Below, one piece after another: positions 47,450 through 55,072 of a DNA stretch of 64,000 bases. The notes beneath the pieces were generated by a model, which saw only the letters and a list, made by a program, of their open reading frames with translations, made no database searches and was not told the DNA's origin. Made by a program: the position numbers and the translations under genes. The DNA is taken from assembly GCF_016026235.1 (NCBI RefSeq), contig NZ_CP065613.1; one strand, given 5' to 3'. This stretch comes from Escherichia coli. GTDB lineage: Bacteria; Pseudomonadota; Gammaproteobacteria; Enterobacterales; Enterobacteriaceae. Positions within the stretch are counted from its first letter, which is position 1, and each line of letters begins with the position of its first letter.

Positions 47450-49879
47450 GTGTCGTCGTTGCCCGTTGCTGCCGTTTTACCTGAATTACTTACCGCTCTC
47501 GATTGTGCGCCGCAGGTATTATTAAGTGCGCCGACCGGGGCCGGGAAATCAACCTGGCTGCCGCTGCAACTGCTGGCGCATCCCGGCATTAACGGGAAAA
47601 TTATCCTGCTGGAGCCGCGTCGTCTGGCGGCGCGTAACGTCGCGCAACGACTGGCGGAGCTGCTTAACGAAAAGCCAGGCGATACCGTTGGCTACCGGAT
47701 GCGTGCGCAAAACTGCGTCGGGCCGAATACCCGCCTGGAAGTGGTTACCGAAGGCGTGCTGACGCGCATGATCCAGCGTGACCCGGAACTGAGCGGTGTT
47801 GGATTGGTGATCCTCGATGAATTTCATGAGCGCAGCTTGCAGGCGGATTTGGCGTTGGCGCTGTTACTCGATGTGCAACAAGGTCTGCGTGATGACCTTA
47901 AACTGCTGATTATGTCGGCTACGCTGGATAACGACCGCTTGCAGCAAATGCTGCCAGAAGCGCCCGTCGTCATCTCAGAAGGGCGCTCGTTTCCGGTTGA
48001 ACGCCATTATTTACCGCTGCCCGCGCATCAGCGTTTTGACGAAGCCGTTGCGGTAGCCACCGCCGAAATGCTGCGTCAGGAAAGCGGATCATTACTGTTA
48101 TTTTTACCTGGCGTCGGAGAAATTCAGCGTGTGCAGGAACAACTGGCTTCGCGCATCGGCAGTGATGTGTTGCTCTGCCCGCTGTATGGCGCGTTGTCGC
48201 TGAACGATCAGAGAAAAGCGATCCTCCCGGCACCGCAAGGGATGCGCAAAGTGGTGCTGGCGACCAATATTGCTGAAACCAGTTTAACCATTGAAGGTAT
48301 TCGTCTGGTGGTGGATTGTGCCCAGGAGCGTGTGGCGCGTTTTGATCCGCGCACGGGGCTTACGCGACTGATTACTCAACGCGTTAGCCAGGCATCCATG
48401 ACGCAGCGTGCCGGGCGCGCCGGGCGTCTGGAGCCGGGTATCAGCCTGCATTTAATCGCCAAAGAACAAGCAGAACGCGCCGCGGCGCAAAGTGAACCGG
48501 AGATCTTACAAAGCGATCTTTCCGGTTTGCTGATGGAATTACTGCAATGGGGATGCAGCGATCCGGCGCAGATGAGCTGGCTGGATCAACCGCCAGTAGT
48601 GAATCTACTGGCCGCGAAACGTCTGTTACAAATGCTGGGGGCACTGGAGGGTGAACGGCTTAGTGCGCAAGGGCAAAAAATGGCAGCGCTGGGTAACGAT
48701 CCGCGTTTAGCGGCAATGCTGGTTAGCGCGAAGAACGACGACGAAGCTGCTACCGCGGCAAAAATTGCCGCCATTCTCGAAGAGCCGCCACGGATGGGCA
48801 ATAGTGACCTGGGCGTGGCGTTTTCGCGCAATCAACCAGCCTGGCAGCAACGTAGTCAGCAACTGTTAAAACGCTTAAACGTACGCGGCGGTGAGGCAGA
48901 CAGTTCGCTTATCGCGCCGCTACTTGCCGGGGCGTTTGCCGATCGCATTGCTCATCGCCGTGGGCAAGATGGACGCTATCAACTGGCAAACGGCATGGGA
49001 GCGATGCTCGATGCCGACGACGCGCTAAGCCGCCACGAATGGTTGATCGCACCGTTATTATTGCAGGGCAGCGCCTCGCCGGATGCGCGGATTTTACTGG
49101 CGCTGCCGGTCGATATTGATGAGTTAGTACAACGCTGCCCGCAGCTGGTACAGCAGTCTGACACTGTGGAGTGGGATGACGCGCAAGGTACGCTGAAAGC
49201 CTGGCGTCGGCTGCAAATCGGTCTGCTGACGGTGAAAGTGCAGCCGCTGGCGAAACCCTCGGAAGACGAGTTGCATCAGGCGATGCTTAATGGCATTCGT
49301 GATAAAGGTTTAAGCATGCTCAACTGGACGGCGGAAGCGGAACAGCTACGCTTGCGTTTGTTATGCGCCGCAAAGTGGTTGCCGGAATATGACTGGCCTG
49401 CGGTTGATAATGAAAGTTTGTTGGCGACGCTGGAAACGTGGCTGCTGCCACATATGACCGGCGTGCATTCACTACGCGGCCTGAAATCACTCGACATTTA
49501 TCAGGCACTACGCGGATTACTTGATTGGGGAATGCAGCAACGTCTGGATAGTGAATTGCCTGCGCATTACACTGTGCCGACGGGAAGCCGGATCGCCATT
49601 CGTTATCATGAAGATAACCCGCCCGCGCTGGCGGTGAGAATGCAGGAGATGTTTGGTGAGGCCACCAATCCGACGATCGCCCAGGGGCGCGTGCCGCTGG
49701 TGCTGGAGTTGCTTTCCCCTGCCCAAAGGCCGCTGCAAATCACGCGTGATTTGGGGGCCTTCTGGAAAGGGGCGTATCGTGAGGTGCAAAAGGAGATGAA
49801 AGGGCGTTATCCCAAACACGTCTGGCCGGACGACCCGGCAAACACGGCACCGACGCGACGGACGAAAAAGTATTCGTAA
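47450..49879 (+). CDS. hrpB: ATP-dependent RNA helicase HrpB (DEAH-box)
   Basis: 809-aa product from GTG start (VSSLPVAAVLPELL); GAGKST Walker A, DEFHER motif. Confidence 0.9.
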   Translation: MSSLPVAAVLPELLTALDCAPQVLLSAPTGAGKSTWLPLQLLAHPGINGKIILLEPRRLAARNVAQRLAELLNEKPGDTVGYRMRAQNCVGPNTRLEVVTEGVLTRMIQRDPELSGVGLVILDEFHERSLQADLALALLLDVQQGLRDDLKLLIMSATLDNDRLQQMLPEAPVVISEGRSFPVERHYLPLPAHQRFDEAVAVATAEMLRQESGSLLLFLPGVGEIQRVQEQLASRIGSDVLLCPLYGALSLNDQRKAILPAPQGMRKVVLATNIAETSLTIEGIRLVVDCAQERVARFDPRTGLTRLITQRVSQASMTQRAGRAGRLEPGISLHLIAKEQAERAAAQSEPEILQSDLSGLLMELLQWGCSDPAQMSWLDQPPVVNLLAAKRLLQMLGALEGERLSAQGQKMAALGNDPRLAAMLVSAKNDDEAATAAKIAAILEEPPRMGNSDLGVAFSRNQPAWQQRSQQLLKRLNVRGGEADSSLIAPLLAGAFADRIAHRRGQDGRYQLANGMGAMLDADDALSRHEWLIAPLLLQGSASPDARILLALPVDIDELVQRCPQLVQQSDTVEWDDAQGTLKAWRRLQIGLLTVKVQPLAKPSEDELHQAMLNGIRDKGLSMLNWTAEAEQLRLRLLCAAKWLPEYDWPAVDNESLLATLETWLLPHMTGVHSLRGLKSLDIYQALRGLLDWGMQQRLDSELPAHYTVPTGSRIAIRYHEDNPPALAVRMQEMFGEATNPTIAQGRVPLVLELLSPAQRPLQITRDLGAFWKGAYREVQKEMKGRYPKHVWPDDPANTAPTRRTKKYS

Positions 49880-49884
49880 GGTTG

Positions 49885-49990
49885 GTTTTCTCCCTCTCCC
49901 TGTGGGAGAGGGCCGGGGTGAGGGCATCAGCGCGCACGTTCACCCTCACCCTAACCCTCTCCCTCAAGGGAGAGGGGACCGATCGAGCAC
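49885..49990. repeat. Cluster of three GC-rich palindromes (hairpins) in the hrpB-mrcB intergenic region
   Basis: CCCTCTCCC-TGT-GGGAGAGGG; GGTGAGGGC..(loop)..ACCCTCACC; CCCTCTCCC-TCAA-GGGAGAGGG. Confidence 0.5.
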
Positions 49991-50074
49991 AAATTTTGAG
50001 AGATATCTTCTTCTGTCTTGCAACAGAAGAACAGAAAATCGGGCTTTTGCGCCTGAATATTGCGGAGAAAAAGC

Positions 50075-52609
50075 ATGGCCGGGAATGACCGCGAGCCAAT
50101 TGGACGCAAAGGGAAACCGACGCGTCCGGTCAAACAAAAGGTAAGCCGTCGTCGTTACGAAGATGACGATGATTACGACGATTATGATGACTATGAGGAT
50201 GAAGAACCGATGCCGCGCAAAGGTAAGGGCAAAGGCAAAGGGCGTAAGCCTCGTGGCAAACGCGGCTGGCTATGGCTGCTGTTAAAACTGGCTATCGTTT
50301 TTGCCGTGCTGATCGCCATTTACGGCGTTTATCTCGATCAAAAAATTCGTAGCCGTATTGATGGCAAGGTCTGGCAACTGCCTGCGGCAGTTTATGGCCG
50401 AATGGTCAACCTTGAGCCAGACATGACCATCAGCAAGAACGAGATGGTGAAGCTGCTGGAGGCGACCCAGTATCGCCAGGTGTCGAAAATGACCCGTCCT
50501 GGCGAATTTACCGTGCAGGCCAACAGCATTGAGATGATCCGCCGTCCGTTTGATTTCCCGGACAGTAAAGAAGGGCAGGTGCGTGCGCGTCTGACCTTTG
50601 ATGGTGATCATCTGGCGACGATCGTCAATATGGAGAACAACCGTCAGTTCGGCTTTTTCCGTCTTGATCCGCGTCTGATCACCATGATCTCTTCGCCAAA
50701 CGGTGAGCAGCGTCTGTTTGTGCCGCGCAGTGGTTTCCCGGATTTGCTGGTGGATACTTTGCTGGCGACAGAAGACCGTCATTTTTACGAGCATGACGGC
50801 ATCAGCCTCTACTCCATCGGACGTGCGGTGCTGGCAAACCTGACCGCAGGTCGCACGGTACAGGGTGCGAGTACGCTGACGCAACAGCTGGTGAAAAACC
50901 TGTTCCTCTCCAGCGAGCGTTCTTACTGGCGTAAAGCGAACGAAGCTTACATGGCGCTGATCATGGACGCGCGTTACAGCAAAGACCGTATTCTTGAGCT
51001 GTATATGAACGAGGTGTATCTCGGTCAGAGCGGCGACAACGAAATCCGCGGCTTCCCGCTGGCAAGCTTGTATTACTTTGGTCGCCCGGTAGAAGAGCTA
51101 AGCCTCGACCAGCAGGCGCTGTTAGTCGGTATGGTGAAAGGGGCGTCCATCTACAACCCGTGGCGTAACCCAAAACTGGCGCTGGAGCGACGTAATCTGG
51201 TGCTGCGTCTGCTGCAACAGCAACAGATTATTGATCAAGAACTCTATGACATGTTGAGTGCCCGTCCGCTGGGGGTTCAGCCGCGCGGTGGGGTGATCTC
51301 TCCTCAGCCAGCCTTTATGCAACTGGTGCGTCAGGAGCTGCAGGCAAAACTGGGCGATAAGGTAAAAGATCTCTCCGGCGTGAAGATCTTCACTACCTTT
51401 GACTCGGTGGCCCAGGACGCGGCAGAAAAAGCCGCCGTGGAAGGCATTCCGGCACTGAAGAAACAGCGTAAGTTGAGCGATCTTGAAACTGCGATTGTGG
51501 TCGTCGACCGCTTTAGTGGTGAAGTTCGTGCGATGGTCGGAGGTTCTGAGCCGCAGTTTGCGGGCTACAACCGTGCGATGCAGGCGCGTCGTTCGATTGG
51601 TTCCCTTGCAAAACCAGCGACTTATCTGACGGCTTTAAGCCAGCCGAAAATCTATCGCCTGAACACGTGGATTGCCGATGCGCCAATCGCGCTGCGTCAG
51701 CCGAATGGCCAGGTCTGGTCACCGCAGAACGATGACCGTCGTTATAGCGAAAGCGGCAGAGTGATGCTGGTGGATGCGTTGACCCGTTCGATGAACGTGC
51801 CGACGGTAAATCTGGGGATGGCGCTGGGGCTGCCTGCAGTTACGGATACCTGGATCAAACTGGGCGTACCGAAAGATCAGCTGCATCCGGTTCCGGCGAT
51901 GCTGCTGGGGGCGTTGAACTTAACGCCAATCGAAGTGGCGCAGGCGTTCCAGACCATCGCCAGCGGTGGTAACCGTGCACCGCTTTCTGCACTGCGTTCG
52001 GTAATCGCGGAAGATGGCAAGGTGCTGTATCAGAGCTTCCCGCAGGCAGAACGCGCTGTTCCGGCGCAGGCGGCGTATCTGACACTATGGACCATGCAGC
52101 AGGTGGTACAACGTGGTACGGGTCGTCAGCTTGGGGCGAAATACCCGAACCTGCATCTGGCAGGGAAAACAGGGACTACCAACAATAACGTAGATACCTG
52201 GTTTGCAGGCATTGACGGCAGCACGGTGACCATCACCTGGGTAGGCCGTGATAACAACCAGCCGACCAAACTGTATGGAGCCAGCGGGGCAATGTCGATT
52301 TATCAGCGTTATCTGGCTAACCAGACGCCAACGCCGCTGAATCTTGTTCCGCCAGAAGATATTGCAGATATGGGCGTGGACTACGACGGCAACTTTGTTT
52401 GCAGCGGTGGCATGCGTGTCTTGCCGGTCTGGACCAGCGATCCGCAATCGCTGTGCCAGCAGAGTGAGATGCAGCAGCAGCCGTCAGGCAATCCGTTTGA
52501 TCAGTCTTCTCAGCCGCAGCAACAGCCGCAACAGCAACCTGCTCAGCAAGAGCAGAAAGACAGCGACGGTGTAGCCGGTTGGATCAAGGATATGTTTGGT
52601 AGTAATTAA
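50075..52609 (+). CDS. mrcB: Penicillin-binding protein 1B (bifunctional glycosyltransferase/transpeptidase)
   Basis: 844-aa product from [14 protein letters not shown]...; acidic [15 protein letters not shown] tract, TM helix, GT and TP motifs. Confidence 0.95.
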
Positions 52610-52828: not shown

Positions 52829-55072
52829 ATGGCGCGTTCCAAAACTGCTCAGCCAAAACACTCACTGCGTAAAATCGCAGTTGTAGTAGCCACAGCGGTA
52901 AGCGGCATGTCTGTTTATGCACAGGCAGCGGTTGAACCGAAAGAAGACACTATCACCGTTACCGCTGCACCTGCGCCGCAAGAAAGCGCATGGGGGCCTG
53001 CTGCAACTATTGCGGCGCGACAGTCTGCTACCGGCACTAAAACCGATACGTCGATTCAAAAAGTGCCACAGTCTATTTCTGTTGTGACCGCCGAAGAGAT
53101 GGCGCTGCATCAGCCGAAGTCGGTAAAAGAAGCGCTTAGCTACACGCCGGGTGTCTCTGTTGGTACGCGTGGCGCATCCAACACCTATGACCACCTGATC
53201 ATTCGCGGCTTTGCGGCAGAAGGCCAAAGCCAGAATAACTATCTGAATGGCCTGAAGTTGCAGGGCAACTTCTATAACGATGCGGTCATTGACCCGTATA
53301 TGCTGGAACGCGCTGAAATTATGCGTGGCCCGGTTTCCGTGCTTTACGGTAAAAGCAGTCCTGGCGGCCTGTTGAATATGGTCAGCAAGCGTCCGACCAC
53401 CGAACCGCTGAAAGAAGTTCAGTTTAAAGCCGGTACTGACAGCCTGTTCCAGACTGGTTTTGACTTTAGCGATGCGTTGGATGATGACGGTGTTTACTCT
53501 TATCGCCTGACCGGTCTTGCGCGTTCTGCCAATGCCCAGCAGAAAGGGTCAGAAGAGCAGCGTTATGCTATTGCACCGGCGTTCACCTGGCGTCCGGATG
53601 ATAAAACCAATTTTACCTTCCTTTCTTACTTCCAGAACGAGCCGGAAACCGGTTATTACGGCTGGTTGCCGAAAGAGGGAACCGTTGAGCCGCTGCCGAA
53701 CGGTAAGCGTCTGCCGACAGACTTTAATGAAGGGGCGAAGAACAACACCTATTCTCGTAATGAGAAGATGGTCGGCTACAGCTTCGATCACGAATTTAAC
53801 GACACCTTTACTGTGCGTCAGAACCTGCGCTTTGCTGAAAACAAAACCTCGCAAAACAGCGTTTATGGTTACGGCGTCTGCTCCGATCCGGCGAATGCTT
53901 ACAGCAAACAGTGTGCGGCATTAGCGCCAGCGGATAAAGGCCATTATCTGGCACGTAAATACGTCGTTGATGATGAGAAGCTGCAAAACTTCTCCGTTGA
54001 TACCCAGTTGCAGAGCAAGTTTGCCACTGGCGATATCGACCACACCCTGCTGACCGGTGTCGACTTTATGCGTATGCGTAATGACATCAACGCCTGGTTT
54101 GGTTACGACGACTCTGTGCCACTGCTCAATCTGTACAATCCGGTGAATACCGATTTCGACTTCAATGCCAAAGATCCGGCAAACTCCGGCCCTTACCGCA
54201 TTCTGAATAAACAGAAACAAACGGGCGTTTATGTTCAGGATCAGGCGCAGTGGGATAAAGTGCTGGTCACCCTGGGCGGTCGTTATGACTGGGCAGATCA
54301 AGAATCTCTTAACCGCGTTGCTGGGACGACCGATAAACGTGATGACAAACAGTTTACCTGGCGTGGTGGTGTTAACTACCTGTTTGATAATGGTGTAACA
54401 CCTTACTTCAGCTATAGCGAATCGTTTGAACCTTCTTCGCAAGTTGGGAAGGATGGTAATATTTTCGCACCGTCTAAAGGTAAGCAGTATGAAGTCGGCG
54501 TGAAATATGTACCGGAAGATCGTCCGATTGTAGTTACTGGTGCCGTGTATAATCTCACTAAAACCAACAACCTGATGGCGGACCCTGAGGGTTCCTTCTT
54601 CTCGGTTGAAGGTGGCGAGATCCGCGCACGTGGCGTAGAAATCGAAGCGAAAGCGGCGCTGTCGGCGAGTGTTAACGTAGTCGGTTCTTATACTTACACC
54701 GATGCGGAATACACCACCGATACTACCTATAAAGGCAATACGCCTGCACAGGTGCCAAAACACATGGCTTCGCTGTGGGCTGACTATACCTTCTTTGACG
54801 GTCCGCTTTCAGGTCTGACGCTGGGCACCGGTGGTCGTTATACTGGCTCCAGCTATGGTGATCCGGCTAACTCCTTTAAAGTGGGAAGTTATACGGTCGT
54901 GGATGCGTTAGTGCGTTATGATCTGGCGCGAGTCGGCATGGCGGGCTCCAACGTGGCGCTGCATGTTAACAACCTGTTCGATCGTGAATACGTCGCCAGC
55001 TGCTTTAACACTTATGGCTGCTTCTGGGGCGCAGAACGTCAGGTCGTTGCAACCGCAACCTTCCGTTTCTAA
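52829..55072 (+). CDS. fhuA: Ferrichrome outer membrane transporter FhuA (TonB-dependent)
   Basis: 747-aa ORF with signal peptide, TonB box and C-terminal ...ATATFRF. Confidence 0.95.
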   Translation: MARSKTAQPKHSLRKIAVVVATAVSGMSVYAQAAVEPKEDTITVTAAPAPQESAWGPAATIAARQSATGTKTDTSIQKVPQSISVVTAEEMALHQPKSVKEALSYTPGVSVGTRGASNTYDHLIIRGFAAEGQSQNNYLNGLKLQGNFYNDAVIDPYMLERAEIMRGPVSVLYGKSSPGGLLNMVSKRPTTEPLKEVQFKAGTDSLFQTGFDFSDALDDDGVYSYRLTGLARSANAQQKGSEEQRYAIAPAFTWRPDDKTNFTFLSYFQNEPETGYYGWLPKEGTVEPLPNGKRLPTDFNEGAKNNTYSRNEKMVGYSFDHEFNDTFTVRQNLRFAENKTSQNSVYGYGVCSDPANAYSKQCAALAPADKGHYLARKYVVDDEKLQNFSVDTQLQSKFATGDIDHTLLTGVDFMRMRNDINAWFGYDDSVPLLNLYNPVNTDFDFNAKDPANSGPYRILNKQKQTGVYVQDQAQWDKVLVTLGGRYDWADQESLNRVAGTTDKRDDKQFTWRGGVNYLFDNGVTPYFSYSESFEPSSQVGKDGNIFAPSKGKQYEVGVKYVPEDRPIVVTGAVYNLTKTNNLMADPEGSFFSVEGGEIRARGVEIEAKAALSASVNVVGSYTYTDAEYTTDTTYKGNTPAQVPKHMASLWADYTFFDGPLSGLTLGTGGRYTGSSYGDPANSFKVGSYTVVDALVRYDLARVGMAGSNVALHVNNLFDREYVASCFNTYGCFWGAERQVVATATFRF

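Follow-up and report, generated by a model that had tools for sequence, protein, structure and literature searches.

Palindromes between hrpB and mrcB of Escherichia coli as an inverted BoxC/PIT/TMECO doublet and a possible link of this repeat family to YcjD-like DUF559 nuclease genes

BoxC is a classic intergenic repeat of Escherichia coli whose origin, mobilising enzyme and function have been unexplained since 1992. The repeat has been described as BoxC (Bergler, 1992), as PIT (Hoyne & Maher, 2000, 2002) and as TMECO, which have been treated as the same motif, CCCTCNCCC-N3-6-GGGNGAGGG-N3-GGGNGAGGG (Holder et al., 2015, PMC4666352); the names BoxC (Bachellier et al., 1999) and PIT (Hoyne et al., 2000) have been used for it elsewhere as well. 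As a single strand, the motif forms a stable purine-motif triplex in vitro; no triplex has been found in the duplex form or by in vivo DMS footprinting (Holder et al., 2015, PMC4666352). TMECO loci are far more variable among E. coli strains than control intergenic regions, and the motif has been reported from 262 proteobacterial genomes, as missing from Salmonella and, in E. coli, as not associated with phages (Holder et al., 2015, PMC4666352). Furthermore, Hoyne and Maher (2002), as cited in PMC4666352, found neither promoter nor terminator activity of the repeat, and a block of polymerase in vitro has been observed.

Equally, YcjD, a member of the DUF559 family, belongs to the widespread proteins with a nuclease fold and no known role. 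In a published survey, DUF559 is placed together with Vsr and the homing endonuclease of a group I intron (PDB 3r3p). The gene ycjD resides between sapF and fabI in place of the efflux operon eefRABCD in the phylogroups A, B1 and C, and its 3' end shows a 12-nt length variant in two sequence types (2026 paper, PMC12817139).

The window considered here is a stretch of E. coli DNA of 64,000 nucleotides, in which GC-rich palindromes occupy the spacer between hrpB and mrcB. By their sequence, these palindromes are one catalogued BoxC/PIT/TMECO locus of E. coli; both halves are letter for letter identical to TMECO 1 and TMECO 2 of the published catalogue, so the element was already known. Table 1 of PMC4666352 places TMECO 1, type B, at MG1655 164547-164580 on the plus strand and TMECO 2, type A, at 164631-164597 on the minus strand, and these coordinates map onto the two halves in the window via the K-12 annotation of hrpB and mrcB. 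The full family pattern matches once per strand (49892-49924, plus; 49943-49976, minus) with no match in 100 shuffles. Equally, the pattern of the small hairpin, CCCTCTCCC-N2-8-GGGAGAGGG, has two occurrences in the window against none in 100 shuffles, which bears out the two near-identical hairpins seen in the initial annotation. Three consecutive palindromes had been described there; the blocks are present as described, but the anatomy has to be revised, as the palindromes are nested and the order over 49892-49976 reads C-G-G, an 18-nt spacer and C-C-G, that is, two inverted copies of a tripartite motif whose third G block is needed by no hairpin.

Table. Features of the palindromic element between hrpB and mrcB and of its right-hand neighbour (positions in the window)
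Feature	Position	Strand	Basis
Left outer flank GGTTGGTTTTCT	49880..49891	+	matches part of GaGCACcGTTTTCT, the outer flank consensus of type B (8 K-12 type-B copies aligned)
BoxC/TMECO no. 1, type B: CCCTCTCCC-TGT-GGGAGAGGG-CCG-GGGTGAGGG-C	49892..49925	+	Table 1 entry 1 of the published catalogue and family pattern
Block CCCTCTCCC	49892-49900		sequence read
Block GGGAGAGGG	49904-49912		sequence read
Block GGGTGAGGG	49916-49924		sequence read
Central 18-nt spacer CATCAGCGCGCACGTTCA	49925..49942	.	loop of the long hairpin
BoxC/TMECO no. 2, type A: CCCTCTCCC-TTGA-GGGAGAGGG-TTA-GGGTGAGGG-T	49942..49976	-	Table 1 entry 2 of the published catalogue and family pattern
Block CCCTCACCC	49943-49951		sequence read
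Second block CCCTCTCCC	49955-49963		sequence read
Second block GGGAGAGGG	49968-49976		sequence read
Type-A outer tail, minus strand TTGTGCTCGATCGGTC, directly 5' of the core	49977..49992	-	PWM and alignment
Conserved mrcB upstream region, outside the repeat	49995..50074	+	conserved in E. coli, Salmonella and Citrobacter freundii

BoxC copies occur as type A with the loop TTA and as type B with the loop CCG, often joined into inverted A+B pairs, and the window holds one B copy on the plus and one A copy on the minus strand. All 23 K-12 copies were regained by a regular expression at their published positions, with every locus of the catalogue fetched, and each of them lies between annotated genes. 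When compared by BLAST with complete E. coli genomes, the 106-bp element matched at 55,051 places in 5,331 of 5,426 genomes (median 10, at most 25 places per genome), so that it is a dispersed repeat present in many strains rather than a sequence unique to one locus. The suggestion of a distinct intergenic repeat family was consequently right as to the separate family, which is, however, the one already catalogued. The family had also been set apart from REP correctly, as the palindromes at 24030-24135 are canonical REP of unrelated sequence and the window element does not contain the REP consensus palindrome of the type GCCGGATGCGGCG.../...GCCTGATGCGCTACGCTTATCAGGCCTAC. Open reading frames across the element (49882-50088 and 49902-50144 on the plus strand, 49740-50099 and 49517-49927 on the minus strand) derive only from a mechanical ORF list and were rightly regarded as spurious. 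The RefSeq annotation has no feature at this place, and with mechanical ORFs crossing it the element is in need of a correct label. Two of the 23 K-12 copies, TMECO 3 and TMECO 4, are situated within the annotated cryptic prophage CP4-6 (K-12 281000-290500), one of them adjoining yagA, a gene with an integrase core domain.

Conservation among copies extends beyond the core. When the K-12 type-A copies are aligned with their flanks, a common outer tail, …AAAAA.gtGCaC.gaaCGGTC, directly precedes the core, in some copies preceded itself by CTGATGACAAA, and a common inner flank, GAACAGGCCgGCA…, is seen; in the type-B copies GaGCACcGTTTTCT directly precedes the core. With a position weight matrix derived from the tails of the 14 other type-A copies in K-12, the tail in the window scores 16.1 bits, the top value among approximately 128,000 16-mers of the window. 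As judged by these alignments, the tail is part of the repeat unit although it lies outside the published core of 34-37 nt, and the BoxC repeat unit as such is larger than this core, with tails and inner flanks that are absent from the literature consulted. The central spacer has a small GCGC stem of its own and the inner flank CAGCGCGCA in common with other copies, while the left outer flank adjoins the end of the hrpB stop codon and is paired, when the RNA is folded, with 49977-49984.

Relative to the K-12 annotation, the element starts 12 nt 3' of the hrpB stop codon (TAA, 49877-49879) and ends 98 nt 5' of the mrcB start codon (ATG, 50075). The segment left of 49995 is not conserved among E. 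coli, Salmonella and Citrobacter freundii, so that the conserved region upstream of mrcB marks the right limit of a variable slot. This conserved region is probably the promoter or leader of mrcB; a sigma-70 consensus was not found in it. A hairpin, TTCTTCTGT...ACAGAAGAA, occupies 50008-50031 of these approximately 80, highly conserved nt, its outer arms kept and its inner part differing. Further downstream, the first codons of mrcB (50155-50196) contain a 9-nt periodic repeat, TTACGAAGATGACGATGA with variants, which codes for an acidic stretch rich in D and Y.

Polymorphism of the hrpB-mrcB spacer was assessed with a 501-bp query across the spacer, which matched 3,535 of 5,425 E. coli genomes at a coverage of at least 80%, and by even sampling of the ranked matches. 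In this sampling about 60% of the alleles carry the full doublet, about 5% a 64-bp deletion, and about a third are devoid of the element. Among the representatives aligned, the full allele is seen in this window and in K-12. In OkiPb01676, the 64 bp between two direct copies of CCCTCTCCC are deleted with one hairpin and both flanks left, and Z1323HEC0422 displays a 12-bp slippage deletion. Direct repeats within a palindrome favour slippage deletions, which would render the locus hypervariable between strains, and we infer that the deletions of the element arose by replication slippage. In CFT073 and other empty alleles, approximately 113 nt are replaced by 10 nt, and hrpB ends with TGA rather than TAA. 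The stop codon is TGA also in Salmonella and Citrobacter freundii, in which a REP-type palindrome (L145, 2970-3030; L146, 998-1050) directly 3' of the stop occupies the same slot and is followed by the same conserved mrcB leader of approximately 80 nt; in Klebsiella pneumoniae, mrcB is not adjacent to hrpB. The presence of REP in the same slot of the outgroups identifies the position 3' of hrpB as a tolerated landing place for palindromic repeats. By comparison of these sequences, the BoxC doublet after hrpB was probably gained within E. coli, where it would occupy the only place under little constraint between the end of hrpB and the conserved mrcB leader.

Other loci of the family vary in a similar manner. 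Between adk and hemH, a BoxC-bearing segment of approximately 160 nt (K-12) alternates with an unrelated segment of 55 nt, which makes this intergenic region an exchanged cassette and not an insertion; the unrelated 55-nt segment, which has a hairpin of its own, is present in about 46% of the E. coli genomes. The alleles between alx and sstT comprise the full doublet, a short form with one hairpin (Nissle) and an unrelated replacement of 370 nt (E. coli B). Target-site duplications were sought at hrpB-mrcB, adk-hemH and alx-sstT and none was found, the alleles differing by sequence replacement. A precise insertion at GGTC with a remnant of the tail in CFT073 was considered and rejected, as the CFT073 sequence scores -12.2 bits with the tail matrix versus 16.1 bits for the tail in the window. 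The replacement of resident sequence without target-site duplication leaves the mechanism of insertion unexplained, which counts against the reading preferred below.

The best fold of the single strand is one long hairpin in which the palindromes are combined, with -74 to -76 kcal/mol as RNA (z = -7.6) and approximately -34 kcal/mol as DNA, compared to -53.5 (RNA) and -29 (DNA) for three separate hairpins. Single strands, as in replicating DNA or in read-through hrpB RNA, would thus fold into a very stable long hairpin or into three small ones. Equally, when GGGTGAGGG is laid antiparallel on GGGAGAGGG, only G.G, T.A and A.A triads are formed; this composition is compatible with a purine-motif triplex, and each half might adopt such a structure within the strand, for which there is a precedent in vitro (Holder et al., 2015, PMC4666352).

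Stable folding at such a position raises the question of a role in the transcript. Repeats of the REP type located just after stop codons are reported to influence the fate of mRNAs, and a hairpin starting only 12 nt from the hrpB stop was counted against the absence of a local role. The element might accordingly stabilise the 3' end of the hrpB transcript, act as a partial attenuator or constitute a barrier to transcription between hrpB and mrcB, as REP in other operons; the position, the strength of the RNA hairpin (-75.8 kcal/mol, z = -7.6) and the occurrence of REP at the same position in Salmonella and Citrobacter are in agreement with such a role. However, GACCGATCG follows directly 3' of the hairpin without any run of U or T as characteristic for an intrinsic terminator, and a consensus scan of 49700-50200 gave no terminator-like site and no promoter consensus. 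A permissive Rfam search retrieved sub-threshold models of eukaryotic miRNA hairpins only (best 29 bits versus a gathering score of 74). Moreover, family copies are found in both orientations and in all gene contexts, neither terminator nor promoter activity was found by Hoyne and Maher (2002), as cited in PMC4666352, and about a third of the strains have hrpB and mrcB intact without the element. A transcript-stabilising structure, one of the functions initially considered, is thus unsupported, and a function at the RNA level is regarded as unlikely.

The window element is therefore very probably the known BoxC/PIT/TMECO inverted doublet, extended by its tail to 49992, as a non-coding, dispersed repeat without a dedicated role for hrpB or mrcB. 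We infer that the element is neutral or selfish and not regulatory.

The distribution of the motif beyond E. coli bears on this conclusion. Scanning one genome per species with the family pattern gave at least 120 loci. Among the matches listed, many copies were found in metagenome-assembled genomes (MAGs) assigned to Anaerolineales, Hydrogenophaga, Burkholderiaceae and Hyphomicrobiaceae, and fewer copies in MAGs of Planctomycetota, Melainabacteria, Moraniibacteriota and Dehalococcoidia, a distribution that, based on MAGs, is open to binning errors. The flanks of the motif are specific for the lineage. In the MAG JAUXWL01 of Anaerolineales, the motif lies inside a MITE of approximately 205 bp, which has the terminal inverted repeats GGGTCTGTAAA.../...TTTACGAACCC and is flanked on either side by TAA. 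The position of the motif in this MITE is internal, beside a CCCTTCCCC/GGGGAAGGG hairpin, and many contigs end at the MITE; that the copies at contig ends represent the termini of a large IS was rejected, since they equal the MITE of approximately 205 bp. The exact TMECO pattern is also common on predicted viral contigs of IMG/VR (at least 120 matches), with seven copies on one 43-kb contig.

Within the motif, the third G block, dispensable for every hairpin, keeps its sequence in very distant bacteria; its free position carried T or A, and never G or C, in all of 133 hits among the matches listed, and a G.A mismatch in the stem, present in 15 of the 23 K-12 copies, recurs in a Hydrogenophaga MAG. 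These shared features favour sequence-specific selection or recognition over neutral junk and thus weigh against the preferred reading. Another reading is a DNA structure that serves the host, a triplex or cruciform involved in replication pausing, nucleoid organisation or deliberate variation; a block 3 that is always compatible with purine triads (133 of 133 among the matches listed) and the hypervariability of the loci are in its favour. This idea is considered highly improbable, as no triplex has been observed by DMS footprinting in vivo or in duplex DNA (PMC4666352), the element is dispensable at hrpB-mrcB, and hypervariability is equally expected of a selfish, slippage-prone palindrome.

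A partner gene of the repeat was searched for among 1,065 ORFs located up to 1.2 kb from motifs, which were clustered, with only the recurrent clusters taken to Pfam. The recurrent neighbours across genomes consist of ABC ATPases, response regulators and one further cluster, DUF559 ORFs; a transposase or RAYT was not found among the recurrent clusters within this distance. In a gammaproteobacterial MAG, the ORF enclosed by two inverted motifs belongs to DUF559 (Pfam E = 2e-42), and a DUF559 ORF of a Moraniibacteriota MAG lies 22 nt from a motif. Among the matches listed, which cover approximately 2.2 Mb, all four DUF559 genes are located 23-107 nt from a motif, code for proteins 42-46% identical to YcjD and share one architecture, with a C-G-G motif on the strand of the gene, the ORF, and an inverted C-C-G motif at the 3' end of the ORF.

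When loci are approached from the protein instead, 10 of the 13 closest YcjD homologues, on viral contigs, have pyrimidine/purine hairpins on both sides. Such hairpins amount to 2.43 per kb within 300 nt of the gene versus 0.29 per kb farther off; the surroundings of 67 distant DUF559-like genes, 205 kb in all, contain none, and the 64-kb window contains three, two of which are the window element. The sole other one in the window, TCCTCTCC...GGAGAGGA at 29814-29842 followed by GTTTTGA, has the look of an intrinsic terminator, and its arms resemble variant hairpins beside some DUF559 genes (three loci). The sequence of the hairpin follows the lineage of the nuclease, being CCCTCTCCC/GGGAGAGGG, TCCTCTCC/GGAGAGGA, or TCTCCCCCC/GGGGGGAGA with the mirror block AGAGGGGGG.

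In enteric bacteria the connection is visible within the coding sequence itself. Enterobacter asburiae, Klebsiella oxytoca, Kluyvera, Phytobacter and Franconibacter have the DUF559 gene in differing neighbourhoods, and in each of these five genera the ORF terminates within an inverted type-B BoxC, its last codons reading …PSPRPSP and its stop codon lying in the loop of the hairpin, and a type-A copy follows. Equally, the minus strand over the type-B half of the window element (49930-49904) codes for LMPSPRPSP, the conserved C-terminus of enteric YcjD homologues (tblastn). In K-12, ycjD, whose product bears the annotation DUF559, is followed at a distance of 168 nt by the original BoxC, TMECO 9, and the 3' end of ycjD itself (…RSPSP, stop) is inside a degenerate BoxC hairpin. 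The combination of ycjD with TMECO 9 was found in 3,376 of 5,426 E. coli genomes. K-12 ycjD (L007, 5408-5761) further displays a perfect 16-nt inverted repeat, CACCTCATTCTGACAA...TTGTCAGAATGAGGTG, across its start codon.

YcjD is related to the Neisseria endonuclease-like protein 3hrl (E = 1e-27). As an out-of-sample prediction, own variants of the tripartite motif were expected beside the homologues of 3hrl, and the prediction held in N. meningitidis, Kingella and Uruburuella, with motif variants that have 2-nt loops. Flanks of three of the Neisseriaceae DUF559 loci contain repeated modules of two tripartite motifs, both of which are missed by the published TMECO pattern; these motifs may be the many G/C-rich triplex motifs counted in Neisseria by Holder et al. 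Taken together, of 24 loci, which derive from Enterobacteriaceae, Neisseriaceae, distant MAGs and viral contigs, 23 have a hairpin at up to 350 nt from the gene. The tripartite form is present in 18 of the 24 loci as counted by eye, since two automated detectors of the third block were unreliable, one of them missing the motifs of the window itself; the statistics use the hairpin detector only. The literature on DUF559 or YcjD, in incomplete coverage, provided no connection to BoxC. From genome comparison, the association between BoxC and YcjD-like genes is strong and apparently unreported.

These observations allow an extended reading, in which the BoxC/PIT/TMECO repeats would be cognate to a small selfish cassette of wide distribution with a YcjD-like DUF559 endonuclease (Vsr-fold, PD-(D/E)XK), and the doublet in the window a gene-less, non-autonomous derivative similar to a MITE or REPIN. 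This reading is an extension of the identification of the doublet as a known dispersed repeat and not a strict rival, and it is put forward tentatively, as a possibility somewhat less probable than its negation. In a full cassette, the gene would be preceded by a C-G-G motif and overlapped at its 3' end by an inverted C-C-G motif; removal of the gene would leave type A, a spacer and inverted type B, which is the order of the window element when read on its minus strand. The structured motif would be a site of recognition or cleavage for the nuclease, and repair that uses other copies would spread the repeat and replace local sequence. YcjD-like genes bracketed by motifs and enteric last codons that are type-B BoxC indicate that the doublet may be such a gene-less derivative. 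The identical order of motif, gene and motif, the flanking hairpins at 4 of 4 loci found by the motif, 10 of 13 found by the protein and 23 of 24 in total, the ORF ending in type-B BoxC in five enteric genera with differing neighbourhoods, the degenerate copy at the end of E. coli ycjD with TMECO 9 at 168 nt, the prediction that held in three genera of Neisseriaceae, the hairpin sequence following the nuclease lineage through Enterobacteriaceae, Neisseriaceae, Chloroflexota and CPR MAGs and viral contigs, and the homing endonuclease among the relatives of the same fold (PDB 3r3p) are in favour of it.

On the other hand, an action of the nuclease on the motif is suggested by genomic context, and the association could instead stem from a hairpin that serves the gene as terminator or regulator, or from insertion of repeats beside the gene. 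The enteric cassettes are devoid of the upstream motif, and the tripartite count (18 of 24) depends on reading by eye. Remnants of DUF559 pseudogenes were sought beside the K-12 BoxC copies and the window element and only the PSPRPSP encoded by the motif was found. The presence of ycjD and the number of BoxC copies show no simple relation, with O157:H7 keeping many copies without ycjD. The initial proposal of a protein-binding site is unsupported as such, with a YcjD-like nuclease as a candidate partner.

The genomic link merges two questions, on BoxC and on the role of YcjD/DUF559, into one that can be tested. If true, the action of the nuclease on the motif would underlie the spread of the repeat and the reported genomic instability, and the cassette would constitute a second partnership of repeat and enzyme like REP/RAYT, built on a PD-(D/E)XK nuclease. 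Equally, the link could explain BoxC loci as hotspots of intergenic replacement in E. coli, for example between sapF and fabI, where ycjD with BoxC alternates with eefRABCD.

Among the known systems, MITEs such as Correia, ERIC and the Anaerolineales element of approximately 205 bp are similarly small, palindromic, non-coding, multi-copy and polymorphic in presence and absence, whereas the BoxC alleles of E. coli have inverted repeats and show replacement, without a target-site duplication between filled and empty alleles at hrpB-mrcB, adk-hemH and alx-sstT. Vsr, I-Bth0305I (PDB 3r3p) and Neisseria 3hrl are fold relatives of YcjD and provide a precedent for a selfish nuclease of this fold; YcjD, a nuclease as predicted from its fold, differs from Vsr and I-Bth0305I in having neither an intron nor an adjacent methyltransferase. 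With REP, BIME and REPIN, BoxC has in common short GC-rich palindromes of two subtypes in inverted doublets, located between genes and often just 3' of stop codons, yet the sequences are not similar, and REP lacks the third G block that makes BoxC a mirror repeat. As in the REP/RAYT system, a small gene stands amid its own repeats, the candidate counterpart in BoxC being the YcjD-like DUF559 gene (23 of 24 loci); the gene of the REP system is a Y1 HUH tyrosine transposase, while the BoxC-flanked gene codes for a PD-(D/E)XK nuclease of the Vsr fold. Closest is BoxC/PIT/TMECO itself, of which the window element is a member with the same core sequence, A and B loops, inverted A+B pairing, intergenic site and strain variability; to a core without difference, the present analysis adds the conserved tails and inner flanks and the possible link to YcjD-like genes.
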